Shown here: piece after piece, positions 3,796 to 39,432 of the stretch
How positions within the stretch are numbered: position 1 is the stretch's first letter
Layout of the letters: each line of letters opens with the position of its first letter
Sequence record: PZ402302.1
Strand: one strand, 5' to 3'
Length of the DNA: 39,751 nucleotides
Source: a phage
Translations under genes and position numbers: made by a program
The notes under the pieces: generated by a model
Database searches by the model: none
What the model was told of the DNA's origin: nothing
Seen by the model: only the letters and a program-made list of their open reading frames with translations

Positions 3796-3975
3796 TCTCA
3801 TAGTTCATACCAAGTGGTTTCCCCCTGTGGGTAACTCTGTGGATAACCTGAGGATAACTCTGTGGATAACTTGTGGATAACTCTAGGTTAGAGGCTGTGT
3901 GGATAACTTTGGGTGAGACTGTTAGTAACTCTGTGGATAACTCTGTGTCTCTGTGTCCCTATCTGTAAGTGACCT
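3796..3975. repeat. putative terminal repeat (single collapsed copy; concatemer junction / physical genome ends)
   Basis: Start tctcatag...ttccccctgtggg and end gtgtctctgtgtccctatctgt...acc resemble recalled first and last bases of the T7 160-bp terminal repeat; flanked by short-repeat arrays; lies between 19.5 and phiOL. Confidence 0.5.
3838..3940. repeat. array of TGTGGATAA repeats (complement of DnaA-box TTATCCACA): 5 perfect copies + 1 one-mismatch copy
   Basis: Perfect copies at 3838, 3861, 3872, 3898, 3932; tgAggataa at 3849; all same orientation, extended consensus ctgtggataact, 11-12 bp spacing for the first four. Confidence 0.8.
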
Positions 3976-5134: not shown

Positions 5135-5185
5135 TAAACTCAAGGTCGCTCCTAGCGAGTGGCCTTTATGATTATCACTTTAACC
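5135..5185 (+). promoter_or_regulatory. RNase III-type processing hairpin (R0.5-like)
   Basis: aaactcaaggtcgctcctagcgagtggcctttatgattatcactt: essentially identical to recalled T7 R0.5 site. Confidence 0.75.
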
Positions 5186-5202
5186 AATGAAGGAAGCACA
5201 CA

Positions 5203-5487
5203 ATGCGTTTAAGTAAAGATACAGCGGTGGCACTACGCTCAGCAATTGAATCCAAAGCTGCACACAACGTGGGAGGTCTTGCGGATATTGCACGGGCTTA
5301 TGAGGAGAAAGGTCTAACATTCCGTCGATTTATGTGGGACTGTTACCACGCAGTAGGCTTTCAAGAAACGACCAGAATAATCTCTGAGCACAACACGGTT
5401 ACGTTAATCGGTGGACACCTAACAGACGTGACTGATGCACACATCGAAACAATACTCAAGGTTGCGCTTAAAGATTTGCAATACTAG
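5203..5487 (+). CDS. hypothetical early protein, 94 aa
   Basis: ATG with RBS aaggaag; bracketed by RNase III-type hairpins; MRLSKDTAVALRSAIESKAAHNVGG...; no recognisable T7 0.4/0.5 similarity. Confidence 0.65.
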   Translation: MRLSKDTAVALRSAIESKAAHNVGGLADIARAYEEKGLTFRRFMWDCYHAVGFQETTRIISEHNTVTLIGGHLTDVTDAHIETILKVALKDLQY

Positions 5488-5639
5488 TGATAAACTCAAG
5501 GTCGCTCCATGCGAGTGGCCTTTATGATTATCACTTTGAAACAACGCACGGGATTAATATCAAGTGATAAACTCAAGGTCGCTCCATGCGAGTGGCCTTT
5601 ATGATTATCACTTTGAAACAACGCACGGGATTAATATCA
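5486..5639. repeat. perfect 2 x 77-bp tandem duplication, each unit carrying an RNase III-type hairpin
   Basis: 5486-5562 and 5563-5639 are identical; each contains aaactcaaggtcgctccatgcgagtggcctttatgattatcac; starts in the stop codon of the 94-aa ORF and ends at the ATG of the 0.6A-like ORF. Confidence 0.9.
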
Positions 5640-18294: not shown

Positions 18295-20409
18295 ATGTTA
18301 CTATCCGACATCGAAACAAACGGGTTGCTGCACAACGTTAGTCAATTTCACTGTGCGGTGACTTACGACTACACAACTGACCAGTACATCCGTTACCGAC
18401 CTGATGACTTTGGGGCGTACATTGATGCACTCGAAGCCGAGGTTGCTCGTGGTGGTCTCATTGTGTTCCACAACGGTCACAAGTATGACGTTCCTGTTAT
18501 CGAGAAGCTGGCGAAGCTGATTCTGAATCGTGACGTTAAGTTCCCGAAAGAGAACGTCTTGGACACCTTAGTGATGTCCCGACTGATTTACTCTAACATC
18601 AAAGACACTGATGCTGGTCTGCTGCGTTCTGGCAAGCTGCCGGGTAAACGCTTTGGCTCTCACGCTCTTGAGGCGTGGGGCTACCGCTTAGGCGAAATGA
18701 AGGGTGAGTACAAGGACGACTTTAAGAAGTCACTGGAAGAGTCTGGTGATGAATACGAAGACGGGATGGAGTGGCTGTTCTTCAACGAAGACATGATGGA
18801 ATATAACGTTCAAGACGTTGTAGTCACCAAGGCACTCTTTGAGAAACTGTGTAGCAACACTTTCTATTTCCCGAACGAGACACCCGCTGGAAGCACAGAA
18901 GCAGAACGTTTCTGGAACGGTAGCCTTGAGGCTGTCAAGCTGGAACATGATGCTGCATGGTTGTTAGCTAAGATGGAGCGTAACGGTTTTCCTATTGACA
19001 TTAAGTCTCTTGAGAACCTGTACGCAGAACTCGCTGGTAGACGTGGTGAGCTACTCGTAGAGTTAACCAATACGTTTGGCTCATGGTACTCCGCTAAGGG
19101 CGGTACTGAAGCATTCAGGCATCCTCGTACCGGAAAGCCGCTCACCAAGTATCCTCGTGTGAAGTACCCGAAACAGGGTGGTATATTTAAGAAGCCTAAG
19201 AACAAGAAGCAACGTGAAGGCTTAGAGCCATGTGAGTTGGATACCCGCGATTACGTTGAGGGTGCTCCGTATACTCCGGTTGAGCACGTTGTGTTTAACC
19301 CTTCGAGCCGAGACCACATCACTCGTGTTCTCACCAAGGCTGGTTGGGTTCCCGTTGAGTTCACCCCAAGTGGTGCACCAAAGGTAGACGATGAGGTCTT
19401 AGAGCACGTTAAGGTAGACGACCCTGATGCACAGCGTTGCATTGAGTTGATTAAAGAATACCTTATGATTCAGAAACGTATCGGTCAGGTTGCTGAGGGT
19501 GATAACGGCTGGCTCCGAATGATTGGAGAAGATGGTCGTATTCACGGAAGCGTTAACCCTAACGGTGCGGTAACTGGACGTGCAACCCATAGTTTCCCTA
19601 ACGTGGCACAGGTGCCTTCTATCCGTGCTGCTTATGGCGAACCTTGCCGTGCTGCTTTCGGTGCCGAGCACAACATGAAAGACGGTAAGCCAGACCCTTG
19701 GATTCAAGTTGGTGTGGATGCGTCCGGCCTTGAGCTACGTTGCTTGGGCCACTTCATGTATCGTTATGATGAGGGTGAGTACGTTGAGACTATCCTCACT
19801 GGTGACATCCATACGAAGAACCAATTGGCTGCGGGCCTACCAACTCGTGACAACGCTAAGACATTTATCTATGGGTTCCTCTATGGTGCTGGCGCTGCGA
19901 AGATAGGACAGATTGTTGGTGGTACTGCCGAAGACGGTAAGCGACTCATAAAGAACTTCCTTGAGCAAACCCCTGCTATCGCTGCATTACGTGAAGCAAT
20001 CACAGGGACACTCGTCAAGGACTCTAAGTGGGTTGGTGGTGAACAGAAAGTAACTTGGAAGCGCCGTTGGGTTCGAGGCTTGGATGGTCGTAAAGTACAC
20101 GTCCGTAGTCCTCACGCTGCGTTGAACACCTTGTTGCAATCTGCTGGTGCTCTGATTTGTAAACTGTGGATTGTAGAGACTGAGCGTCTGTTACTGGAAG
20201 CTGGCCTGAAGCATGGCTGGGATGGCGACTTTGCGTATATGGCTTGGGTACACGATGAGATTCAGGTAGCTGCACGTACTCAAGAGATTGCCGATAAGAT
20301 TGTAGAGTTGGCACAGCAAGCAATGCGTAATGTGGGAGACCACTTTAACTTTAGATGTCAGTTAGATACCGAAGGTAAGACTGGCGCAAACTGGAAAGAT
20401 TGTCACTAA
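18295..20409 (+). CDS. 5: DNA polymerase, family A with 3-prime-5-prime exonuclease (T7 gp5-like), 704 aa
   Basis: Same length as T7 DNAP; blocks DIETNGLL (exo), LIVFHNGHKYDVPV, GKRFGSHALEAWGYRLGEMKGEYKDDFK, RDNAKTFIYGFLYGAG, YMAWVHDEIQV match by recall. Confidence 0.97.
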   Translation: MLLSDIETNGLLHNVSQFHCAVTYDYTTDQYIRYRPDDFGAYIDALEAEVARGGLIVFHNGHKYDVPVIEKLAKLILNRDVKFPKENVLDTLVMSRLIYSNIKDTDAGLLRSGKLPGKRFGSHALEAWGYRLGEMKGEYKDDFKKSLEESGDEYEDGMEWLFFNEDMMEYNVQDVVVTKALFEKLCSNTFYFPNETPAGSTEAERFWNGSLEAVKLEHDAAWLLAKMERNGFPIDIKSLENLYAELAGRRGELLVELTNTFGSWYSAKGGTEAFRHPRTGKPLTKYPRVKYPKQGGIFKKPKNKKQREGLEPCELDTRDYVEGAPYTPVEHVVFNPSSRDHITRVLTKAGWVPVEFTPSGAPKVDDEVLEHVKVDDPDAQRCIELIKEYLMIQKRIGQVAEGDNGWLRMIGEDGRIHGSVNPNGAVTGRATHSFPNVAQVPSIRAAYGEPCRAAFGAEHNMKDGKPDPWIQVGVDASGLELRCLGHFMYRYDEGEYVETILTGDIHTKNQLAAGLPTRDNAKTFIYGFLYGAGAAKIGQIVGGTAEDGKRLIKNFLEQTPAIAALREAITGTLVKDSKWVGGEQKVTWKRRWVRGLDGRKVHVRSPHAALNTLLQSAGALICKLWIVETERLLLEAGLKHGWDGDFAYMAWVHDEIQVAARTQEIADKIVELAQQAMRNVGDHFNFRCQLDTEGKTGANWKDCH

Positions 20410-20424
20410 TAGGAGACACATATC

Positions 20425-20727
20425 ATGGCTATTACTAAACGTTTTAAAGTATCATTCGAAGTCACCGCTGTAATTGATAGCGAGTCTGAGAACAACCTGA
20501 ATGATTTACTCGTAGACATCGCTAAGAAAGCTGCCACTGGTGAGGAACTTAACCCGTTTAAACGTGAGTTGCTAGTTCAAGGTCTAACCTATGGACCAGA
20601 AGGTGCTGCCGCATTCTGTATCAAGCAGGGTCTTCGCAATTTTATTCGTGAGGGCCACGGCGAACTGAGTTCAACCGAGCGAAAGCTCATGCGATTCTCT
20701 CCAGCTACTATTCGTGAGGTGAAGTAA
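20425..20727 (+). CDS. 5.5: gp5.5-like protein (H-NS-binding family), 100 aa
   Basis: MAITKRFKVSFEVTA... and C-terminal SPATIREV match recalled T7 gp5.5. Confidence 0.75.
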   Translation: MAITKRFKVSFEVTAVIDSESENNLNDLLVDIAKKAATGEELNPFKRELLVQGLTYGPEGAAAFCIKQGLRNFIREGHGELSSTERKLMRFSPATIREVK

Positions 20728-20936
20728 TGGGTGATTATCTACGTGTACTGGCGGCTATCAAAAGCTGCCCCAAGACCTTTCAGTCGAACTATGTGCGCAA
20801 CAATGCGTCACTGGTGGCTGAGGCTGCGAGTCGTGGTCATATCTCTTGCCTATCAGTCGATGGGCGTAATGCTGGCGCTTGGGAAGTAACAGGCGCTGGT
20901 GTCCGATTCCTGAAGAAGATGGGAGGTTGCGTATGA
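20727..20936 (+). CDS. 5.7: gp5.7-like protein, 69 aa
   Basis: AIKSCPKTFQSNYVRNNASLVAEAASRGHISCL...RFLKKMGGCV nearly identical to recalled T7 gp5.7. Confidence 0.85.
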   Translation: MGDYLRVLAAIKSCPKTFQSNYVRNNASLVAEAASRGHISCLSVDGRNAGAWEVTGAGVRFLKKMGGCV

Positions 20937-21847
20937 GCGCAATTACACTGAAGGAGTTCTACGAGTTACGCCAAGGGAAATCCGATAAGGGTGTTCTCGT
21001 AATGGATGGTGACTGGCTGGTATTCCAAGCGATGGCAGCAAGCGAAGTCGAGACCGATTGGGGTGACGATGTGTGGACCTTAGAGTGTGACCACGGGAAA
21101 GCGTGGAACATTCTGGTTGACTCTATCAAGTCCTATGCGAGTCGTAAGAAGGCTTGGCGTGATGCACCTATCGTACTGGCCTTCACGGACGCTGTGAACT
21201 GGCGTAAGGAACTAGTGGACCCAACCTATAAGGAGAACCGTAAGGCATCCCGTAAGCCTGTAGGATACCGTGCGTTCGTCGAGCGTGTTCAAGCATGTGA
21301 GGACTGGATGTCTATCCTTGAAGACCGACTTGAGGGTGATGACGTAATGGGAATCATTGGGTCTGGTGCTAAACATTTTGGTTTCAAGAAGGCTGTACTG
21401 GTCTCCTGTGATAAGGACTTTAAGACCATCCCTGATTGTGACTTCTTGTGGTGCACGACTGGTAACATCTTGACTCAAGACCAGACTACTGCTGACTACT
21501 GGCACATCTATCAGACCATTAAAGGTGACTTGACGGATGGTTATGGTGGCATTCCGGGCTGGGGCGAGACTACCGCTGAGTGGCTGGAGAACCCGTATGC
21601 CTTTGAACAGGTTGAGAAAACTTTCAAGTCTGGTGCCCGTAAGGGACAGACAGTTCTCGAATGGAAAAAGGTTGACATGGGTGAGCGAACCCTATGGGAA
21701 GCCATTGTGACACTTGGTGCAAAAGCTGGGATGACCGAAGAGGAAATCATTAAGCAAGGCCAGATGGCTCGTATACTTCGATTCGAAGAGTACAACTTTA
21801 TCGACAAGGAGATTTACCTATGGTCGCCGGAACAGTTGCGTTCGTAA
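20933..21847 (+). CDS. 6: 5-prime-3-prime exonuclease (T7 gp6-like), 304 aa
   Basis: KGVLVMDGDWLVFQAM, PIVLAFTD.VNWRKELVDP.YK.NRK, DKDFKTIPDCDFLWCTTGNILTQ, KQGQMARILRFEEYNFIDKEIYLW match recalled T7 gp6; ATG 20933 overlaps 5.7 stop. Confidence 0.95.
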   Translation: MSAITLKEFYELRQGKSDKGVLVMDGDWLVFQAMAASEVETDWGDDVWTLECDHGKAWNILVDSIKSYASRKKAWRDAPIVLAFTDAVNWRKELVDPTYKENRKASRKPVGYRAFVERVQACEDWMSILEDRLEGDDVMGIIGSGAKHFGFKKAVLVSCDKDFKTIPDCDFLWCTTGNILTQDQTTADYWHIYQTIKGDLTDGYGGIPGWGETTAEWLENPYAFEQVEKTFKSGARKGQTVLEWKKVDMGERTLWEAIVTLGAKAGMTEEEIIKQGQMARILRFEEYNFIDKEIYLWSPEQLRS

Positions 21848-21906
21848 TGTTCGCAATCGTAGCCTTCGCTATGGTGTGGGCTGCATTTATAGCTAAGAGT
21901 GTGTAA
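21847..21906 (+). CDS. tiny hydrophobic ORF, 19 aa (gene 6.3 position)
   Basis: MFAIVAFAMVWAAFIAKSV; ATG overlaps gene 6 stop; hand-translated; weak. Confidence 0.3.
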   Translation: MFAIVAFAMVWAAFIAKSV

Positions 21907-21934
21907 CTCTAGGCATTCTTCTTGACAGTGAAAT

Positions 21935-21957
21935 CAATACGACTCACTATTGAGAGG
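21935..21957 (+). promoter_or_regulatory. phage RNAP promoter (phi6.5-like)
   Basis: caatacgactcactattgagagg. Confidence 0.8.
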
Positions 21958-22008
21958 GGTGCCTATATGATACCTACTTTAAGTTTAACTTTAAGGAGAA
22001 CATTAATT

Positions 22009-22254
22009 ATGTTAACCCCTATCAAGAAGTATATGGAGAACCCACAAGATATTCCTAACGTTCCTCGTGCAACTATGGAGTACCTACAGGTTCAATACAA
22101 TGCTGGATATGCTATTCAGTCAGGACTAATCAACCGATTGAAACAGGCTGGATGGTCTGAAAGCTACATCGCTGGGTTCCTCGCGGGTCTCAACTATGCG
22201 TCTCAAACTCTGGACGACATGGAGGCAATCCGTAGGGAACAGGCTGAGTCGTAA
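22009..22254 (+). CDS. 6.5: gp6.5-like protein, 81 aa
   Basis: RBS taaggag; MLTPIKKYMENPQD...; position after phi6.5. Confidence 0.65.
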   Translation: MLTPIKKYMENPQDIPNVPRATMEYLQVQYNAGYAIQSGLINRLKQAGWSESYIAGFLAGLNYASQTLDDMEAIRREQAES

Positions 22255-22263
22255 GGAGGTCTT

Positions 22264-22539
22264 ATGTGCTTTTCGCCAAAGATTAAGACACCTAAAGTAA
22301 AGACTGAATCCATCCGAGCTATCGACCCTGCGCCACTGACGGAAGAACCGAAAGGTATTCTCTTTGGTGGCGAAGAGGACAATGATAGCGGAACCTCTTC
22401 TGAGGTGCCAACGGGTGGCAAGAAGTCCCTGAAGGTGAAACTGGATGACTCCGTTGAGAAGTCCAAGAAGGCAGACTCCGATGCTGCCAAGAAGAAGTCT
22501 AAATCTGGTATCCGTACCAGTATCTTTAAGAAGAAATAA
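22264..22539 (+). CDS. 6.7: gp6.7-like virion protein, 91 aa
   Basis: MCFSPKIKTPK... and basic C-terminus match recalled T7 gp6.7. Confidence 0.8.
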   Translation: MCFSPKIKTPKVKTESIRAIDPAPLTEEPKGILFGGEEDNDSGTSSEVPTGGKKSLKVKLDDSVEKSKKADSDAAKKKSKSGIRTSIFKKK

Positions 22540-22553
22540 ATAGGAGGTCTATC

Positions 22554-22922
22554 ATGGGTTGGGGTAAAAAGATTCGCAAATCAGTTAAGAAGGCTGTCAA
22601 GAAAGTAACCAAACCTATCGAGAAGGTAGTCAAGGAAACTGGTAAGGCAGTTGAGAAGGTCGGTAAGGAAGCTGGTAAGGTCGTTGGCGGCGTTGCTGGT
22701 GCACTTGCTGGTGGGGGTAAGCCTGATGTACAGGTGGTTGAACAAGCTGCTCCTGTAGCTGCTCCGGCCCCGGCTGCTGCACAGATTATTGAGCCACCGA
22801 GTAAAGACGATGTGGATACCGATGATGATGCACAGACCGAATCTGGCAAGAAGAAAGCCCGTGCTGGCGGTAAGAAATCTCTGAGTGTCGCTCGCAGTTC
22901 TGGCGGTGGTCTGAATATCTAA
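22554..22922 (+). CDS. 7.3: gp7.3-like tail/host-range protein, 122 aa
   Basis: Lys-rich N-terminus and C-terminus TESGKKKARAGGKKSLSVARSSGGGLNI match recalled T7 gp7.3. Confidence 0.85.
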   Translation: MGWGKKIRKSVKKAVKKVTKPIEKVVKETGKAVEKVGKEAGKVVGGVAGALAGGGKPDVQVVEQAAPVAAPAPAAAQIIEPPSKDDVDTDDDAQTESGKKKARAGGKKSLSVARSSGGGLNI

Positions 22923-22935
22923 TTAAGGAGGCACT

Positions 22936-24543
22936 ATGGCAAGCTCACAGAAACGTGAAGGCTTCGCGGAGAATGGTGCCAAGGCGGTGTATGACGCATT
23001 GAAGAACGACCGGAACTCCTATGAGACCCGTGCGGAAAACTGTGCGAAGTACACCATCCCTTCGTTGTTCCCTAAAGACTCCGACAACGCCTCTACTGAC
23101 TACACCACTCCGTGGCAAGCAGTTGGCGCTCGTGGCTTGAACAACTTGGCCTCTAAGCTCATGCTCGCTCTGTTCCCTATGCAGACGTGGATGAAGCTGA
23201 CCATCTCTGAGTTCGAAGCGAAACAATTGGTTGCACAGCCAGCCGAACTAGCGAAGGTCGAAGAAGGTCTCTCAATGGTCGAGCGAATCTTGATGAACTA
23301 CATCGAGTCCAACTCGTACCGTGTGACACTCTTTGAGACCCTCAAGCAGTTGGTCGTTGCAGGTAACGCTCTGCTCTACATTCCTGAACCTGAAGGTGCT
23401 TACAATCCGATGAAGCTATACCGACTGTCTTCTTATGTTGTCCAACGAGACGCATTCGGCACGGTGCTACAGATTGTAACCTTAGATAAGACTGCCTATG
23501 CAGCACTTCCAGAAGACGTTCGAAACTCTATGGACTCCGGTCAGGAACATAAAGGCGACGAAATGATTGATGTGTACACTCACATTTATCTTGACGAAGA
23601 ATCTGGTGAGTACCTCAAGTACGAAGAGATTGATGGTGTTGAAGTCGATGGTACAGATGCTTCTTATCCGGTGGACGCTTGTCCTTATATCCCGGTTCGC
23701 ATGGTACGCATTGATGGAGAATCATATGGTCGTTCTTACTGTGAGGAATACTTAGGTGACTTACGGTCCCTTGAGAACCTCCAAGAAGCTATCGTTAAGA
23801 TGTCAATGATTAGTGCTAAAGTTATTGGCTTGGTTAACCCGGCTGGTATCACACAGGTTCGTCGTTTGACCAAAGCACAGACTGGTGACTTCGTGTCTGG
23901 TCGTCCAGAAGACATCTCGTTCCTTCAGCTTGAAAAGGCAGCAGACTTCTCTGTAGCGAAAGCTGTGAGTGAACAGATTGAGGGCCGACTATCCTATGCC
24001 TTTATGTTGAACTCCGCTGTGCAACGCACTGGTGAGCGTGTGACTGCCGAAGAGATTCGATATGTTGCATCTGAACTCGAAGATACCCTTGGTGGTGTCT
24101 ATTCGATTCTCTCACAGGAACTTCAGTTGCCAATGGTTCGTGTCCTGCTGAAGCAACTTCAAGCGACCAATCAGATTCCTGAGCTACCGAAAGAGGCCGT
24201 TGAGCCTACTATCAGTACCGGGATGGAAGCATTGGGTCGTGGTCAAGACCTCGATAAGCTGGAGCGTTGTATTGCTGCTTGGTCTGCTCTTGCTCCTATG
24301 CAGAATGACCCGGACATCAACATTGCGACCATTAAGTTGCGCATTGCGAACGCTATCGGCATCGACACTTCTGGTATCCTCAAGACACCTGAAGAGAAAC
24401 AACAGGAGATGGCTGAGGCTGCTCAAGGAACTGCACTGGAGAACGCTGCTGCATCTGCTGGTGCTGGTGCTGGTGCACTTGCTACTGCAAGCCCTGAGAA
24501 CATGCAAGCGGCTGCTGAACAGGCTGGAATGGTTCCAAATTAA
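22936..24543 (+). CDS. 8: portal (head-tail connector) protein (T7 gp8-like), 535 aa
   Basis: YTIPSLFPKDSDNASTDYTTPWQAVGARGLNNLASKLMLALFPMQTWM identical by recall to T7 gp8 N-terminal block; same length. Confidence 0.97.
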   Translation: MASSQKREGFAENGAKAVYDALKNDRNSYETRAENCAKYTIPSLFPKDSDNASTDYTTPWQAVGARGLNNLASKLMLALFPMQTWMKLTISEFEAKQLVAQPAELAKVEEGLSMVERILMNYIESNSYRVTLFETLKQLVVAGNALLYIPEPEGAYNPMKLYRLSSYVVQRDAFGTVLQIVTLDKTAYAALPEDVRNSMDSGQEHKGDEMIDVYTHIYLDEESGEYLKYEEIDGVEVDGTDASYPVDACPYIPVRMVRIDGESYGRSYCEEYLGDLRSLENLQEAIVKMSMISAKVIGLVNPAGITQVRRLTKAQTGDFVSGRPEDISFLQLEKAADFSVAKAVSEQIEGRLSYAFMLNSAVQRTGERVTAEEIRYVASELEDTLGGVYSILSQELQLPMVRVLLKQLQATNQIPELPKEAVEPTISTGMEALGRGQDLDKLERCIAAWSALAPMQNDPDINIATIKLRIANAIGIDTSGILKTPEEKQQEMAEAAQGTALENAAASAGAGAGALATASPENMQAAAEQAGMVPN

Positions 24544-26978: not shown

Positions 26979-27569
26979 ATGCGTTCCTATGAAACTACCC
27001 TAGAGACTGGCGAAGAGTTGGCTGCGGTCAATGACATCTTGGCCTCTATCGGTGAACCGCCTGTGTCCACTTTGGAAGGTGATGCTAACGCCGATGTCGC
27101 TAACGCACGTCGAGTTCTCAATAAGATTAACCGTCAGATTCAGTCGAAGGGCTGGACGTTCAACATTGAGGAAGGCCAACAGTTGCTGCCTGATGTGTTC
27201 AACGGATTGATTCCATATATGTCTGACTACCTGTCCGTACTGTCTGAAGGAGGCGCGACCGCTTACGTTAATCGTGGTGGTTACGTCTATGACCGGACTA
27301 CAGGAACCGATGTGTTCCAGAACCCCATCACTGTGACCATCATTAAACTGAGAGAGTTCTACGAGATGCCTGAATGCTTCCGCTTCTGGATTGTCACTAA
27401 AGCTGCCCGTCAGTTTAACAACAGGTTCTTCGGTGCACCTGAGATTGACGCTGTGTTGGCTGAAGAAGAACAAGAAGCGAAGATGCAGTGTCATGAGTAC
27501 GAACTGGACTTCGGTAACTTCAACATGCTTGATGGTGATGCCTTCACTGGTGGTCTACTATCTCGTTAA
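26979..27569 (+). CDS. 11: tail tubular protein A / gatekeeper (T7 gp11-like), 196 aa
   Basis: MRSY...[73 protein letters not shown] match recalled T7 gp11. Confidence 0.97.
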
Positions 27570-27588
27570 TAACTTAAGGAGGTCTCTA

Positions 27589-29967
27589 ATGGCTCTTATT
27601 TCACAATCCGTCAAGAACCTGAAGGGCGGTATCAGTCAACAGCCGAACATCTTAAGGTTCCCCGAACAGGGTTCCGAACAGATTAACGGTTGGTCTTCGG
27701 AGACCGAGGGCTTACAGAAGCGTCCACCTTTTGTCTTCACTAAGACCATTGGAGACCAGAATGCCCTTGGTGCCAAGCCTCTCGTTCACCTCATCAACCG
27801 TGATAGTGTCGAACAGTATTACGTTGTGTTCACCGGACAGGGAGTCCGAGTGTTTGACTTGAATGGCAAAGAGTACGCTGTGAAAGGTGACTTGTCGTAT
27901 GTCAAAGTGGGAAACCCTCGTGATGACTTGAGGATGGTCACGGTAGCTGACTATACGTTTATCGTAAACCGTAACATGGTTGTCCGTGCTGATACGGCCC
28001 CGCTATATACACTCAAGGAGAATGGCGACTGTCTGATTAACGTTCGCGGTGGTCAGTATGGTCGAACCTTAGCATTCACCATTAATGGCGTAAGGATTGC
28101 ATATGAGATTGCCCGTGGTGATAAACCTGAGCACGTAAACGAAACTGACGCACAGTGGCTAGTTAAGAAACTTGCTGGACTAGCTCGTGCACATGGTTCC
28201 TTTAAGGACTGGAAGTTCAACGAAGGGCCGGGGTTCATCCATGTGATTGCTCCGGGTAACAGCCAGATTAACTCACTGTCCACTGAAGATGGTTACGCCA
28301 ACCAGTTGATGAACGCAGTAATGCACACTAGCCAGTCATTCAGTAAGTTGCCTCTTGAGGCTCCTAATGGATACACGGTGAAGATTGTTGGGGACACCTC
28401 TAAGACTTCTGATATGTTCTACGTTCAATATGACAACGTGAAGAAGGTGTGGAAAGAGGTTGCTGGATGGGGAGTTGAGAAGGGTCTCAATGGAGGCACT
28501 ATGCCACACGCATTGGTTCGCCAGTCTGATGGTTCCTTCCAGATGCAGGTGCTACCGTGGGCGCAACGAACTTGTGGTGACATGGATACTAACCCGACTC
28601 CATCCATCGTTGACCAGAAGATTAACGATGTGTTCTTCTTCCGTAACCGCTTAGGGTTCCTAGCTGGTGAGAACATTGTGATGTCTCGTACCTCCAAGTA
28701 TTTCTCACTGTTCCCTGCGTCAGTGGCTAACCTGTCAGATGATGACCCGATTGATGTGGCTGTATCTCACAACCGTATCTCAATCCTGAAGTATGCCGTA
28801 CCGTTCTCCGAAGAGTTGCTGCTATGGTCTGACCAAGCACAGTTCGTCCTGTCTGCTTCTGGTATCCTCTCACCGAAGTCTGTAGAGTTGAACCTCACGA
28901 CTGAGTTCGATGTGTCCGACCGTGCGCGCCCTTATGGTGTTGGTCGTGGTGTGTACTTTGCGTCACCCCGTGCTTCCTATACGTCACTCAACCGATACTA
29001 TGCAGTACAGGACGTTAGCTCCGTTAAGTCCGCTGAAGATATGAGTGCTCACGTTCCAAGTTACATCCCCAATGGTGTGTTCTCTATCCGTGGCTCCGGT
29101 ACTGAGAACTTCATCTCCGTGCTATCTGCCAACGCTCCTAGTAAAATCTTCCTCTACAAGTTCCTCTACTTGAACGAAGAGATTGCTCAACAGTCGTGGT
29201 CACATTGGGAACTTGGAAGTAACGTAACGGTTCTGGCTTGTGACTCTATTGGTTCCACCATGTACCTTGTGTTGCGCAACCAGTCCCACACTTGGATGTG
29301 CCGTGCTCACTTTACTAAGAACAGCATCGACTTCCCTGATGAGCCTTATCGTCTGTACATTGACAACAAGGTCAAGCATGTGATTCCTAAAGGTGCGTAC
29401 AACGATGACACCTACACGACCACTATCAAGCCTGTGGACATCTACGGTATGAAGTATTGGACTGGTAGGTTCTACATTGTGTCCTCTGATGGTCTGGTCT
29501 CGTGGTTCGACCCTCCGCGTGGTGGTTGGCCTAATGGCGTTCCTGTGCTGTCAATGAGTGGGAACCGAGAAGGCGAGACTATCTATATCGGAATGGCAAT
29601 CAACTTCCGCTATGTGTTCTCTAAGTTCCTCATCAAGAAGACCGCCGACGATGGCTCTACGGCTACCGAGGATATTGGTCGCTTGCAGCTTCGCCGTGCA
29701 TGGGTTAACTATGAGGATTCTGGTGCATTCGTTGTGGAAGTTGAGAACACGTCACGTCTGTTCAGCTACGATATGGCAGGTGCCCGTTTGGGTTCCAATG
29801 CTCTACGTGCTGGTGGACTTAACGTTGGCACAGGCCAGTTCCGCTTCCCGGTCGTTGGTAACGCACAGTTGAATGAAGTCCGTATTATCTCTGACCACAC
29901 CACGCCACTGAACGTTATTGGCTGTGGATGGGAGGGTAACTACCTTCGTCGTTCTTCTGGTATCTAA
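27589..29967 (+). CDS. 12: tail tubular protein B / nozzle (T7 gp12-like), 792 aa
   Basis: MALISQS.KNLKGGISQQP.IL, DVAVS.NRI.ILKYAVPFSEELL.WSD.AQFVL, IGRLQLRRAWVNYE, GCGWEGNYLRRSSGI match recalled T7 gp12; RBS taaggagg; ORF-track upstream extension rejected. Confidence 0.97.
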   Translation: MALISQSVKNLKGGISQQPNILRFPEQGSEQINGWSSETEGLQKRPPFVFTKTIGDQNALGAKPLVHLINRDSVEQYYVVFTGQGVRVFDLNGKEYAVKGDLSYVKVGNPRDDLRMVTVADYTFIVNRNMVVRADTAPLYTLKENGDCLINVRGGQYGRTLAFTINGVRIAYEIARGDKPEHVNETDAQWLVKKLAGLARAHGSFKDWKFNEGPGFIHVIAPGNSQINSLSTEDGYANQLMNAVMHTSQSFSKLPLEAPNGYTVKIVGDTSKTSDMFYVQYDNVKKVWKEVAGWGVEKGLNGGTMPHALVRQSDGSFQMQVLPWAQRTCGDMDTNPTPSIVDQKINDVFFFRNRLGFLAGENIVMSRTSKYFSLFPASVANLSDDDPIDVAVSHNRISILKYAVPFSEELLLWSDQAQFVLSASGILSPKSVELNLTTEFDVSDRARPYGVGRGVYFASPRASYTSLNRYYAVQDVSSVKSAEDMSAHVPSYIPNGVFSIRGSGTENFISVLSANAPSKIFLYKFLYLNEEIAQQSWSHWELGSNVTVLACDSIGSTMYLVLRNQSHTWMCRAHFTKNSIDFPDEPYRLYIDNKVKHVIPKGAYNDDTYTTTIKPVDIYGMKYWTGRFYIVSSDGLVSWFDPPRGGWPNGVPVLSMSGNREGETIYIGMAINFRYVFSKFLIKKTADDGSTATEDIGRLQLRRAWVNYEDSGAFVVEVENTSRLFSYDMAGARLGSNALRAGGLNVGTGQFRFPVVGNAQLNEVRIISDHTTPLNVIGCGWEGNYLRRSSGI

Positions 29968-29998
29968 AAATTAGAAACACCCCGACTCAATAAGTGAA

Positions 29999-30021
29999 CA
30001 ATACGACTCACTATTGGGAAG
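29999..30021 (+). promoter_or_regulatory. phage RNAP promoter (phi13-like)
   Basis: caatacgactcactattgggaagg. Confidence 0.85.
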
Positions 30022-30050
30022 GGGGGTTTATACTTAAAGGGAGAAACTCT

Positions 30051-30464
30051 ATGTTAATAATCAGACCTACCAAAGAATCAGACTTCGATAGATTCACTCC
30101 GTCACCTGAAGACATCGCTGAGGCACATGCCTACGGTATTGAACCAGCATTTCCACCAGCCAATGAGTGCGTAACTATGTCACTTCATGGTATGCCAGTG
30201 GCTATCGGTGGCAACTGTGGGGACCAAGTGTGGTTCGTAACGTCCGCTCGTGTGTGGAAACTAAGTATGAAGACCCGAAGAGAGTTCCGAAAGCTCATTC
30301 TGGAATATCGTGATACCATGCTCAAACAGTATCCGATTATCTGGAACTACGTTTGGGTCGGCAACAAGTCCCACATTAGGTTCTTGAAGTCTATCGGTGC
30401 GGTGTTCCATAATGAGTTTACTGGTGACAGTAATCAATTCCAACTATTCACAATAGGAGGTTAA
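30051..30464 (+). CDS. 13: internal virion protein A (T7 gp13-like), 137 aa
   Basis: PVAIGGNCGDQVWFVTS, YP..WNYVWVGNKSHIRFLK.IGAVFH.EFT...QFQLFTI match recalled T7 gp13. Confidence 0.9.
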   Translation: MLIIRPTKESDFDRFTPSPEDIAEAHAYGIEPAFPPANECVTMSLHGMPVAIGGNCGDQVWFVTSARVWKLSMKTRREFRKLILEYRDTMLKQYPIIWNYVWVGNKSHIRFLKSIGAVFHNEFTGDSNQFQLFTIGG

Positions 30465-37407: not shown

Positions 37408-39432
37408 ATGGCTAACAAAATTTCCACTGTGCGTACTTACCCACTTAATGGTGCCGTGAACTTCACAATCACCTTTGAGTATCTGGCCCGTAAGTTCGTG
37501 CAAGTAACCCTAATTGGTAAAGACCGTAAGGAACTGGTTCTCAATCAGGACTACCGCTTTACCTCTAAGACGCAAATCACAACCTCTCGTACTTGGACTG
37601 CCGCAGATGGCTACCAGATGATTGAGATTCGTCGATTCACTTCAGCTACTGACCGTCTGGTTGACTTTGCTGATGGCTCTATTCTTCGTGCGTATGACCT
37701 GAACATCTCACAGATTCAGACGCTGCACGTTGCTGAGGAAGCACGAGACCTCACTGCTGATACTATTGGTGTCAACAACGATGGTCACTTAGATGCCCGT
37801 GGTCGTAAGATTGTGAACCTTGCGTTCGCTACCAATGACTATGATGCTGTCCCTCTGAAGCAGATTAAAGAGCGTGAGTCCTCTGCGTGGAATGCTGTCA
37901 CTAAGGCAAACGAACATGCTGACCGTTCTAATCGAGAGGCTAACCGTTCTCGTGATGAGGCTAACCGTGCTCAACGTGAAGCTGACCGTTCAACTCAACA
38001 GGCGGGTATCTCTACGGCACAGGCGGTTGAGTCTAAGAAGCAAGCTGACCGTTCTAACTCTGAGGCCAACCGTGCTAAAGGTTATGCTGATAGTATGACA
38101 GCCAGTGTCGCTGAGGCCAAGAAGCAAGCTGACCGTTCCAACTCTGAGGCCAATCGTGCCCGTGATGAGGCCAATCGTGCTGCCGGAGAAGTGACTAAAG
38201 CTGCTGCGGAGGTTGCCAAGGCTGCTGCACATGTTGAGACCGCTAAAGGTCATGCAGACCGCGCGAACACTGAGGCTAATCGCTCCAAAGGTGAGGCTGA
38301 CCGTGCTAAGACTGAGGCCGACAAGTTAGGCAGCATGAATGCACTTGCAGGGGCTATTGAAAGTGTATCAGGCAATGATGTACGCTTTAAGGGTAAAGTA
38401 AGTGGGCACAGTCTGACTCTACATAATGATGCTAAAGGCGCTGGGACTCAACCAGTAGACCAAGTGTGGAACCAGTGGCGTGGTCAGGACTCTAAGGAGA
38501 CCGTATGGGAACAGTGGATTCAAGCTGGGACAAAACGAATGGACTACTATGTGTTCACTAACACCGACCCGGCAACGTGGCCTGAAGGTCGTTCCAATGG
38601 TCATGGTCGTCATGACTTCTATGGTGGATTCCACTCTCATCATGACTCTCGATTCTACCAGAACGTCTCTATGGATGGGTATCTTCGAGTATCTAAGTAT
38701 ATTAGGGCTGACGAGAGATTCTACACTGAGTCAACTTTTGGGTCAGGAGCGTTCGCAAACCAGTTGAACAACAATGCCCCTTACTCTCAAAGCCTCCCCG
38801 GAAATCAGGATGGTAAGGTATACTACCCTATGATTAAACAATATGGTAGACGCTCAAATGGTTATCCGGCGGCATTCTCCATCGGTATGGTATCCAAGGG
38901 TAGCAACAACTTCCACGATGGTATCATCCAACTCAAGGGGGATGGCGGTAATGAACATGCCCTTACAATGACTATTCAAGGCGCATTGGCAAGTAGTAAG
39001 GGGTGGCAGATTGCGGCAGATGGTAACTTATACATCAAGAAGTATGATTCTTACATCGACGGTTGGGTAAACAAACGCCTTGGTGAACATGCTTACAATA
39101 AAAGCGAAGTAAACAACCTAGTCAATGGACGGTTAACTCAAGCGCAAGCTGATGGTCGCTACATTCGCAAGAACGCTGGGTGGTCAGAAGTATGGCATGG
39201 TTCCGCTGGTGGTGGGGTATCCGTAGGTCTCTCTCAAGATGTCCGCTGGAGAACCATCTGGATTCAAACTCAAGGCAAATGGAACCCGGTTGAGATTGGG
39301 GACAATGGGGCTTACTACATTTCATCGATGGGCGGGTGGTTGACCTTTACAATCTCCAACAACGGGCGTACATTCCGTAACGATGGTGATAGGTCTTCTG
39401 TTCCTACACGCATCCTTGTGCGTAACAACTAA
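37408..39432 (+). CDS. 17: tail fiber protein (gp17-like), 674 aa: conserved N-terminal tail-attachment domain, repeat-rich shaft, divergent C-terminal receptor-binding region
   Basis: First ~150 aa (MANKISTVRTYPLNGAVNFTITFEYLARKFVQVTLIGKDRKELVLNQDYRF...) match recalled T7/T3 gp17; ADRSNSEANRA-type repeats residues ~170-300; C-terminal ~370 aa not recognisably T7-like. Confidence 0.92.
   Translation: MANKISTVRTYPLNGAVNFTITFEYLARKFVQVTLIGKDRKELVLNQDYRFTSKTQITTSRTWTAADGYQMIEIRRFTSATDRLVDFADGSILRAYDLNISQIQTLHVAEEARDLTADTIGVNNDGHLDARGRKIVNLAFATNDYDAVPLKQIKERESSAWNAVTKANEHADRSNREANRSRDEANRAQREADRSTQQAGISTAQAVESKKQADRSNSEANRAKGYADSMTASVAEAKKQADRSNSEANRARDEANRAAGEVTKAAAEVAKAAAHVETAKGHADRANTEANRSKGEADRAKTEADKLGSMNALAGAIESVSGNDVRFKGKVSGHSLTLHNDAKGAGTQPVDQVWNQWRGQDSKETVWEQWIQAGTKRMDYYVFTNTDPATWPEGRSNGHGRHDFYGGFHSHHDSRFYQNVSMDGYLRVSKYIRADERFYTESTFGSGAFANQLNNNAPYSQSLPGNQDGKVYYPMIKQYGRRSNGYPAAFSIGMVSKGSNNFHDGIIQLKGDGGNEHALTMTIQGALASSKGWQIAADGNLYIKKYDSYIDGWVNKRLGEHAYNKSEVNNLVNGRLTQAQADGRYIRKNAGWSEVWHGSAGGGVSVGLSQDVRWRTIWIQTQGKWNPVEIGDNGAYYISSMGGWLTFTISNNGRTFRNDGDRSSVPTRILVRNN

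Follow-up and report, generated by a model that had tools for sequence, protein, structure and literature searches.

The window analyzed here, the whole 39,751-nt stretch of phage DNA in sequence record PZ402302.1, is very probably a complete, circularly permuted Berlinvirus genome in which four slots for accessory genes are empty and in which genes 5.9 and 7 are genuinely lacking, as opposed to having diverged or relocated. Judged by similarity, the phage appears to be essentially a strain of nasanit, an Escherichia phage, with phages 285P and BA14 close to it. The absence of 5.9 and 7 is an ordinary, previously annotated gene-content variant within Berlinvirus, and there is no new biology here, as the layout already appears in the GenBank annotation of BA14 (EU734171) and 285P (GQ468526). 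The practical value is modest and consists of a clean inventory of the optional early and middle genes absent from the phage. The annotation frame is also corrected, Berlinvirus rather than T7 or T3 being the right comparison for this genome.

Genome identity and gene order from gene 5 to gene 8

Berlinvirus records dominated the matches in a similarity search of the region. Across positions 19500–24500, the window was 99.8% identical in DNA sequence to nasanit, 96.8% to 285P and 93.6% to BA14, and identities to 285P, BSP161 and BA14, all three classified as Berlinvirus, ranged from 93 to 97%. The genus Berlinvirus (Studiervirinae) is recognized by genome-wide similarity to and colinearity with Berlin, BA14 and 285P, and whole-window megablast comparisons displayed both features. 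BA14 matched at 91–97% identity over most of the genome, with a few short segments at 83–86%, and was colinear with the window once the permutation was allowed for. Nasanit was likewise colinear with permutation, mostly at 94.6–98.8% identity and with a single short segment at 80%. In the gene 5–8 region, the window differs from nasanit (PV245933), 285P and BA14 by point differences only, whereas elsewhere it departs from nasanit at the C-terminus of the tail fibre, in one early-region ORF and by a 77-bp duplication. This duplication is a perfect tandem one, located in another part of the window, and the record is a permuted assembly.

The segment follows a conserved Berlinvirus backbone composed of genes 5, 5.5, 5.7, 6, 6.3, 6.5, 6.7, 7.3 and 8, and all features described below lie on the + strand. 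Gene 5.5 (20425–20727), a member of the H-NS-binding protein family, was present in the ORF list and matched Pfam PF11247 (E 3e-15) and, by tBLASTn, T3 gp5.5 (E 3e-32). Gene 5.7 (20727–20936, 69 aa) is 83% identical to T7 gp5.7 (E 5e-38) and is named 5.7 in 285P and BA14. Gene 6 (20933–21847) encodes a 5'-3' exonuclease of 304 aa that shares 64–66% identity over 300 aa with the gp6 of T7 and T3 (E 1e-134 to 1e-138), the tBLASTn alignment beginning with residue 1 at 20933. Overlapping the 3' end of gene 6, an ORF at the 6.3 position (21820–21906) encodes a 28-aa hydrophobic peptide that is 96% identical to Bas67 bas67_0035 and is named 6.3 in BA14; no similarity to T7 or T3 gp6.3 was found by tBLASTn. 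The phage RNA polymerase promoter phi6.5, TCAATACGACTCACTATTGAGAG (21933–21956), was recognized from its sequence and matches the position of the phi6.5 annotated in BA14.

Gene 6.5 (22009–22254, 81 aa) matched Pfam PF10911 over residues 1–78 (E 3e-42), and its start was taken as in 285P and BA14, with an AAGGAGA 7 nt upstream of the ATG at 22009; the start in the nasanit record lies 42 nt earlier. Gene 6.7 (22264–22539, 91 aa) was assigned from Pfam PF17570 (E 2e-26) and tBLASTn (E 4e-24 to 4e-26), and gene 7.3 (22554–22922), encoding a virion/tail assembly protein of 122 aa, from Pfam PF11653 (E 7e-25) and tBLASTn (E 1e-31 to 1e-35). The ORF of gene 8 (22936–24543), encoding the portal or head-tail connector protein of 535 aa, is 100% identical to nasanit CDS0047, annotated as 'head-tail adaptor'. 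Nasanit, 285P and BA14 have the same gene order as the window, 5, 5.5, 5.7, 6, (6.3), 6.5, 6.7, 7.3, 8, and like the window are without 5.3, 5.9, 7 and 7.7 and show an identical ATGA junction between 5.7 and 6. T7 (Teseptimavirus) carries homologous 5.5, 5.7, 6, 6.5, 6.7 and 7.3 with 37–83% amino-acid identity to the window; however, it fills all four slots left empty in the window, with 5.3, 5.9, 7 and 7.7.

Four empty accessory slots

Four tight inter-gene junctions of Berlinvirus appear to serve as slots that small accessory genes may or may not occupy. The slot between 5 and 5.5, the 5.3 position, would take an ORF of 75 aa, by annotation a putative homing endonuclease, that between 5.7 and 6 a gp5.9-family gene (Pfam PF25708), and that between 6.7 and 7.3 gene 7. 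For the slot between 7.3 and 8, the filled example is the HNH gene 7.7 of T7, which is not a Berlinvirus. In the window, the 5.3, 5.9, 7 and 7.7 slots are all empty (4/4).

Gene 5.5 starts 15 nt past the gene 5 stop at 20409, a gap that leaves the 5.3 slot empty. The first-pass annotation had described gene 5.7 as overlapping gene 6 directly and gene 6.7 as running directly into 7.3 with no gene 7 between them, and the junctions bear out both descriptions. At the empty 5.9 slot (20921–20936, read directly from the sequence), the GGGAGG Shine-Dalgarno at 20921–20926 is followed by a 6-nt spacer and by ATGA, the 4-nt stop/start overlap shared by 5.7 and 6, which puts the gene 6 ATG at 20933. At the empty gene 7 slot, the TAA stop of 6.7 at 22537–22539 and the ATG of 7.3 at 22554 are separated by a 14-nt spacer, ATAGGAGGTCTATC (22540–22553, also read directly), with an AGGAGG inside it. 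The empty 7.7 slot is a 13-nt spacer ahead of gene 8 (22923–22935). In DNA alignments with relatives, the junctions where 5.9 and 7 would sit are clean indels with no remnants seen, and positions 20700–23000 contained no remnant repeats or pseudogene traces; the only repeats there were short ones within 6.7 and 7.3, attributable to chance or low complexity.

The whole window was then searched by tBLASTn with word size 2, masking off and E up to 100. No match was obtained with T7 and T3 gp5.9 (best E 0.46) or with T7 gp7 (best E 0.48), in agreement with the first-pass view that counterparts of 5.9 and 7 are not present, and T7 gp5.3 (best E 0.22) and T7 gp7.7 (best E 0.19) were both absent as well. 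Positive controls in the same run placed 5.5, 5.7, 6, 6.5, 6.7 and 7.3 at their expected sites with E values of 1e-17 to 1e-138.

The gene content had also been likened to that of T3-group phages, a comparison that holds for gene 7 and fails for 5.9. Like the window, T3 (NC_003298) and phiYeO3-12 (NC_001271), both Teetrevirus, have 6.7 directly followed by 7.3, and 7.3 by 8, with no 7 or 7.7. However, the 5.9 that the window lacks is annotated in both, in T3 as a protein 98% identical to T7 5.9 and in phiYeO3-12 as one of 60 aa, and both carry a 5.3 HNH gene, which is also absent from the window. A T3-group reduced accessory complement requires both 5.9 and 7 to be absent and was rejected as a description of this genome.

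Slot occupancy among Berlinviruses and the 5.9 cassette

With a 414-bp junction query, the 5.7–6 junction was uninterrupted in 12 and carried an insert in 36 of 48 distinct phages, a count drawn from the best 60 database rows rather than a curated dereplicated phylogeny and in which Yersinia pestis phages are over-represented. Inserts in this set measured 174–470 bp and usually contained a PF25708 gp5.9-family gene. The junction is uninterrupted in nasanit, S523, BSP161, D226, vB_SEqdws-315, Carena, 285P, A7, CarlSpitteler, P483, BA14 and pO103, and the slot is filled in ErnstBeyeler/Bas67, PZJ0206, PhiV-1, Yepe2, Berlin and Kvp1. Few Berlinviruses carry gene 7 (A7, P694 and PC192), which is also present in the Apdecimavirus AP10; in A7, a 387-nt gene 7 (~390 bp including spacers) is located exactly at the 6.7–7.3 junction.

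In the Berlinviruses that carry 5.9, the flanking genes 5.7 and 6 are 90–98% identical to the window in DNA sequence, but unlike the window these phages hold between them a cassette of 179–185 bp encoding a 59–61-aa PF25708 protein. Cassettes of 5.9-carrying phages are 56–69% identical, compared with 94–100% for their flanks, which fits a mobile module. An imperfect direct repeat comprising the ribosome-binding site and start, GGGAGG(T/A)TG(C/A)(G/C)(T)TATGAG, brackets the cassette in these relatives, whereas the alignment shows a single hybrid copy in the window. Recombination between the repeats would lead to precise loss of the cassette or, in reverse, to its precise gain, and one hybrid copy is the product expected of such an event in either direction.

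RecBCD inhibition and gp5.9-triggered defences

The absence of 5.9 had been taken in the first-pass annotation to matter for predicting sensitivity to RecBCD. This argument is weak, as gp5.9 is noted as 'not essential' in the T7 RefSeq record and 5.9 L23P escape mutants plate. T7 escape mutants with 5.9 L23P and a gene 1.7 change form plaques on Escherichia coli MG1655 carrying retron Ec48, which is no longer triggered by the L23P protein, and expression of gp5.9 is lethal to Ec48-positive cells. The protein also activates type III Sir2-HerA and inhibits MukBEF, and published work on gp5.9 points more to these activities and to the triggering of retron Ec48. RecBCD inhibition by 5.9 of the Berlin and phiYeO3-12 type, which carries GVDNWDGY in its C-terminal module, is a putative function annotated by homology; the literature searched yielded no experimental test of it and, for Berlinvirus and RecBCD, nothing specific to a missing 5.9.

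The phage has no recognizable DNA-mimic inhibitor of RecBCD (or MukBEF). Failure on recBCD+ hosts is likely not the consequence, because gp5.9 is dispensable in T7. From the literature, it is more likely that the phage does not activate gp5.9-triggered defences.

Loss of 5.9 could also be adaptive in itself, by removing a trigger of abortive-infection systems that guard RecBCD or sense gp5.9, such as retron Ec48 and type III Sir2-HerA. The escape of T7 from Ec48 through L23P, the toxicity of gp5.9 in Ec48-positive cells and its activation of Sir2-HerA are all consistent with this account, as are the polymorphism of the slot among very close relatives and the flanking repeats, which permit precise excision. 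We nevertheless consider it unlikely, since the support in Berlinviruses is by analogy, the direction of change may be gain, the Berlin-type 5.9 differs in its C-terminal half and may not share the targets of T7 gp5.9, and neutral module flux accounts for the same pattern of presence and absence. A still less probable version combines a repeat-bracketed on/off slot at the 5.7–6 junction with shedding of 5.9 under selection by alarm systems (retron Ec48, type III Sir2-HerA) and with tolerance of RecBCD by other means.

That a non-homologous analogue of gp5.9 elsewhere in the genome lets the phage still block RecBCD seems doubtful. About 20 small ORFs of the window have no known function and could include such an analogue, and the known RecBCD inhibitors Gam, Abc2 and gp5.9 are mutually unrelated in sequence. 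However, when 20 unassigned or hypothetical plus-strand ORFs were compared with PHROGs, 18 matched only families of unknown function and two matched none; no annotated RecBCD-inhibitor family was hit, and no inhibitor resembling lambda Gam or P22 Abc2 was found among these 20 ORFs. By gene name or position, most of them correspond to annotated genes of PZJ0206 and Bas67, which carry 5.9, and none is an obvious replacement.

Compensation by Chi sites was considered and rejected. The window contains seven copies of the octamer GCTGGTGG, where dinucleotide shuffles predict 1.4, but phages with 5.9 are similar (T7, 7; PZJ0206, 7; Bas67, 11), and the counts for nasanit and BA14 are 7 and 8. Higher-order Markov models raise the expectation to 2.8–4.2, and 582 other octamers equal or exceed this frequency in the window. 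The Chi-site count is an effect of coding-strand composition, unrelated to 5.9.

For phage therapy and defence work, whether a genome carries a gp5.9-family gene gives an indication of how likely the phage is to set off gp5.9-activated defences, and it also bears on the ability to block RecBCD-dependent defence synergy. Natural Berlinviruses with and without 5.9, whose flanking genes are 93–98% identical, would offer convenient near-isogenic pairs for defence tests.

Divergence, relocation and assembly

A PF25708 gene normally lies between genes 5.7 and 6. The family (Phage_T7_Gp5_9) is characterized by an ORF of ~50–76 aa in which an N-terminal strand bears the motif V-T-x-x-R-(D/E)-x-W-N-(D/E) and precedes a coiled coil, gp5.9 being a parallel coiled-coil dimer (PDB 8B1R), and its profile is matched by both T7-type (27.8 bits) and Berlin-type (72.3 bits) 5.9 proteins; the window has no such ORF. 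The T7 gene 7 family, annotated as a 'host range' protein, has no Pfam model, and neither T7 nor A7 gp7 hit any Pfam family. Its members are ORFs of ~128–136 aa between 6.7 and 7.3 with the block VAY..C(V/I)S.DIHHKGDI.D(V/I)T, and none was found in the window.

Homologues of 5.9 or 7 that are present but too diverged, relocated or placed in another frame would be easiest to overlook for gp5.9, which is only 52–60 aa long and fast-evolving; short proteins are easily missed, and the match between Bas67 and T7 5.9 is limited to 27 N-terminal residues. Variants from closer relatives gave no match either, whole-window tBLASTn reaching best E values of 1.2 for Bas67 5.9, 1.6 for AP10 5.8, 0.10 for A7 gp7 and 0.34 for AP10 gp7. 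Local HMMs built from seven diverse gp5.9 and four gp7 sequences were run with --max over the 1434 stop-to-stop segments of 15 aa or longer from all six frames, again with no match (best E 0.53 for gp5.9 and 0.77 for gp7), and the Ebrios forms, included among the queries for both tBLASTn and profile searches of the whole window, revealed nothing. Whether the seven 5.9 and the four gp7 sequences were queried one at a time by tBLASTn or combined into unfiltered HMMs, E values in six frames were no better than 0.1–0.8, and the canonical slots are no more than a 4-nt overlap or 13–15-nt spacers. Hidden homologues are essentially refuted by these results; the empty slots together with the negative searches argue that 5.9 and 7 are truly missing, not diverged or moved.

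An assembly artefact or laboratory deletion particular to PZ402302.1 has even less to commend it: a permuted assembly with a perfect 77-bp tandem duplication makes assembly quirks conceivable, but the uninterrupted 5.7–6 junction recurs in 12 or more phages that were sequenced independently, and the window-type 6.7–7.3 spacer is also found in PZJ0206, 285P and Bas67.

A separate observation concerns genes 11 and 12, one of which was suspected to be disrupted because the nasanit record has odd CDS calls there. In the window, gene 11 is intact (26979–27569, 196 aa) and gene 12 is normal, and the odd calls are an annotation artefact of the nasanit record.

Gene layout and relatives of the 5.9 and 7 region

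A megablast search with positions 19500-24500, which matched 680 phage records, placed the Escherichia phage nasanit first (99.8% over 100% of the query), followed by Enterobacter phage PZJ0206 (97.5%), 285P (96.8%) and then BSP161 and BA14. All five are filed under the genus Berlinvirus, subfamily Studiervirinae. The entire window (1-39751) is colinear with nasanit and BA14, yet circularly permuted, and represents a whole phage genome that starts inside gene 18 and ends inside gene 17.5. Mapped onto the window, the terminal repeat of BA14 and its physical ends fall at approximately 3830-3950.

The gene order was mapped from the ORF list and by direct sequence reading. Downstream of the 3' end of gene 5 (20409) lie gene 5.5 (20425-20727), gene 5.7 (20727-20936) and gene 6 (20933-21847), whose ATG shares an ATGA with the TGA of 5.7 and is preceded by GGGAGG 6 nt upstream. 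These are followed by a 28-aa ORF at the 6.3 position (21820-21906), a T7-type phi6.5 promoter (~21933-21956, TCAATACGACTCACTATTGAGAG), gene 6.5 (22009-22254), gene 6.7 (22264-22539), a 14-nt spacer, gene 7.3 (22554-22922), a 13-nt spacer and gene 8 (22936-24543). The identities of 5.5, 6.5, 6.7 and 7.3 were supported by Pfam (E = 3e-15 to 3e-42). The coordinates in the first-pass annotation, the overlap of 5.7 with 6 and the direct succession of 6.7 by 7.3 are thus exact. In the nasanit record, gene 6.5 begins at an ATG equivalent to window position 21967 (ORF to 22254). That ATG lacks a good Shine-Dalgarno sequence and sits just ~10 nt past the phi6.5 promoter. The ATG at 22009 is the better start, as it is preceded by TTTAAGGAGA and matches the N-terminus of T7 and T3 gp6.5.

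Searches for counterparts of 5.9 and 7

T7 and T3 proteins taken from RefSeq records were used as tBLASTn queries against the window (word size 2, unmasked, E up to 100). Positive controls 5.5, 5.7, 6, 6.5, 6.7 and 7.3 matched at the expected coordinates with E values of 8e-17 to 4e-138. The claimed lack of 5.9 and 7 counterparts held up in these searches, with no match in the window for gp5.9 of T7 and T3 (best E 0.46) or T7 gp7 (best E 0.48); the best values for T7 gp5.3 and gp7.7 over the whole window were 0.22 and 0.19. Because the 5.9 and 7 genes evolve fast, the search was repeated with versions from nearer relatives, again giving only insignificant values in the window for the 59-aa 5.9 of the Berlinvirus Bas67/ErnstBeyeler (best E 1.2), gp7 of Berlinvirus A7 (0.10) and Apdecimavirus AP10 (0.34), and the AP10 "5.8" (1.6). 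Finally, HMMs built from seven diverse 5.9 proteins (T7, T3, Bas67, PZJ0206, PhiV-1, phiYeO3-12 and Ebrios) and from four gp7 proteins were run with HMMER filters off against all 1434 six-frame stop-to-stop segments, with best E values of 0.53 and 0.77, respectively. The tBLASTn and HMM results together show that the absence of both genes is real.

This absence is a known Berlinvirus gene-content variant already annotated in public records, with 285P, BA14 and nasanit showing the same layout with neither 5.9 nor 7. The likeness to T3-group phages proposed in the first-pass annotation stands only for the second gene: 7 and 7.7 are likewise missing from T3 and phiYeO3-12, but each of these phages has a 5.9, that of T3 being 98% identical to the T7 protein. 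Overall, the observation was confirmed and its interpretation partly supported.

The 5.7|6 junction as a variable site

In ErnstBeyeler, PZJ0206 and PhiV-1, genes 5.7 and 6 are separated by a gene of 180-186 nt that is annotated as RecBCD inhibitor or gp5.9. The encoded Berlinvirus protein scores 72 bits against Pfam PF25708 (Phage_T7_Gp5_9), compared to 27.8 bits for T7 gp5.9. By tBLASTn, this form also occurs in Yepe2, Berlin-like Yersinia pestis phages, Kvp1, phiYeO3-12 and many Klebsiella phages. Among the 60 best rows obtained with a 414-bp junction-spanning query, representing 48 distinct phages, the junction was uninterrupted in 12 (nasanit, S523, BSP161, D226, vB_SEqdws-315, Carena, 285P, A7, CarlSpitteler, P483, BA14 and pO103) and held an insert of 174-470 bp in the other 36. 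Berlinvirus is polymorphic for the content of this slot.

In alignments, the 5.9 cassette is flanked on both sides by an imperfect direct repeat consisting of the ribosome-binding site and start codon (upstream copy GGGAGGTTGCGTATGAG; downstream copy GGGAGGATGAC(T/C)TATGAG), and the window has one repeat copy with the gene 6 codons directly after it. A single copy is the product that would be expected from precise recombination between the repeats, through either loss or gain. Among 5.9-carrying phages the cassettes are just 56-69% identical, whereas the flanks are 94-100% identical; the slot is thus a site of module exchange and not one of simple vertical descent. Gene 7 is rarer than 5.9 in Berlinvirus, the A7, P694 and PC192 forms being 44-46% identical to T7 gp7. 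The 6.7|7.3 junction of A7 holds a clean ~390-bp insert, gene 7 itself being 387 nt, and the 14-nt spacer at this junction is common to the window, PZJ0206, 285P and Bas67. No decayed-gene remnants or repeats were detectable at the window junctions.

RecBCD and gp5.9-triggered defenses

T7 gene 5.9 belongs to class II, and by the time it enters and is expressed, the leading genome end has been inside the cell for minutes; that end must therefore survive RecBCD without gp5.9. The T7 record annotates gp5.9 as not essential. T7 5.9 L23P mutants (plus a gene 1.7 change) evade retron Ec48, which gp5.9 triggers, and still plaque; L23P gp5.9 no longer triggers Ec48-dependent cell death. Additionally, gp5.9 triggers type III Sir2-HerA, inhibits MukBEF and, in trans, blocks the RecBCD-dependent synergy of Druantia III and Zorya II. 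Considering this dispensability, late expression and these other roles, the suggested value of the missing gene for predicting RecBCD sensitivity is weak. A more defensible prediction is that a phage without 5.9 would not set off gp5.9-triggered defenses.

A PHROGs scan of 20 hypothetical ORFs in the window, run to look for a substitute, found no RecBCD-inhibitor family, with 18 matching only unknown-function families and two having no match. The Chi octamer GCTGGTGG occurs seven times in the window, six on the coding strand, with 1.4 expected from dinucleotide shuffles. Chi enrichment as compensation was rejected, as T7 and 5.9-carrying relatives show the same or higher counts and higher-order Markov models expect 2.8-4.2 (4.2 at order 5); the excess is probably an effect of codon or oligomer composition.

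The gp5.9 family itself has at least three architectures (loci L004, L007, L009, L010, L011 and L012 of related phages) with only the N-terminal strand and coiled-coil start in common: a 52-aa short form in T7 and T3, a 59-61-aa form with a C-terminal GVDNWDGY module in Berlin and phiYeO3-12, and a 76-aa long form in Ebrios combining an extended coiled coil with this module. On its own, the C-terminal module matches Enterococcus and Bacillus phages. The T7 form has been investigated for inhibition of RecBCD, and no experimental test of the other forms came up in the literature searched.

Other differences from nasanit

The 3' part of gene 17 (38360-39420), encoding the C-terminal part of the tail fiber, is sharply diverged from nasanit, with no megablast match there for 38360-39017. 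The whole tail-fiber protein is 70% identical to that of nasanit and the remaining genome 94-100%, which suggests a swapped receptor-binding module. In the early region, the window encodes a 94-aa ORF (5203-5487; phrog_9817, unknown function) at the place of a different 66-aa ORF in the nasanit record, and most of it (5185-5482) lacks a megablast match in nasanit. Upstream of gene 0.7, a 77-bp unit including a hairpin-like AAGGTCGCTCCATGCGAGTGGCCTT segment forms a perfect tandem duplication (5486-5639; 2.0 copies, 100% match), whereas nasanit has a single copy; the duplication could be a real recent event or an assembly artefact. The nasanit record (L013) misannotates gene 11/12 at 27322-30258 as a 59-aa "hypothetical" ORF and an 868-aa "tail protein"; in the corresponding window region (26979-29967), gene 11 is intact (196 aa) and gene 12 is normal.
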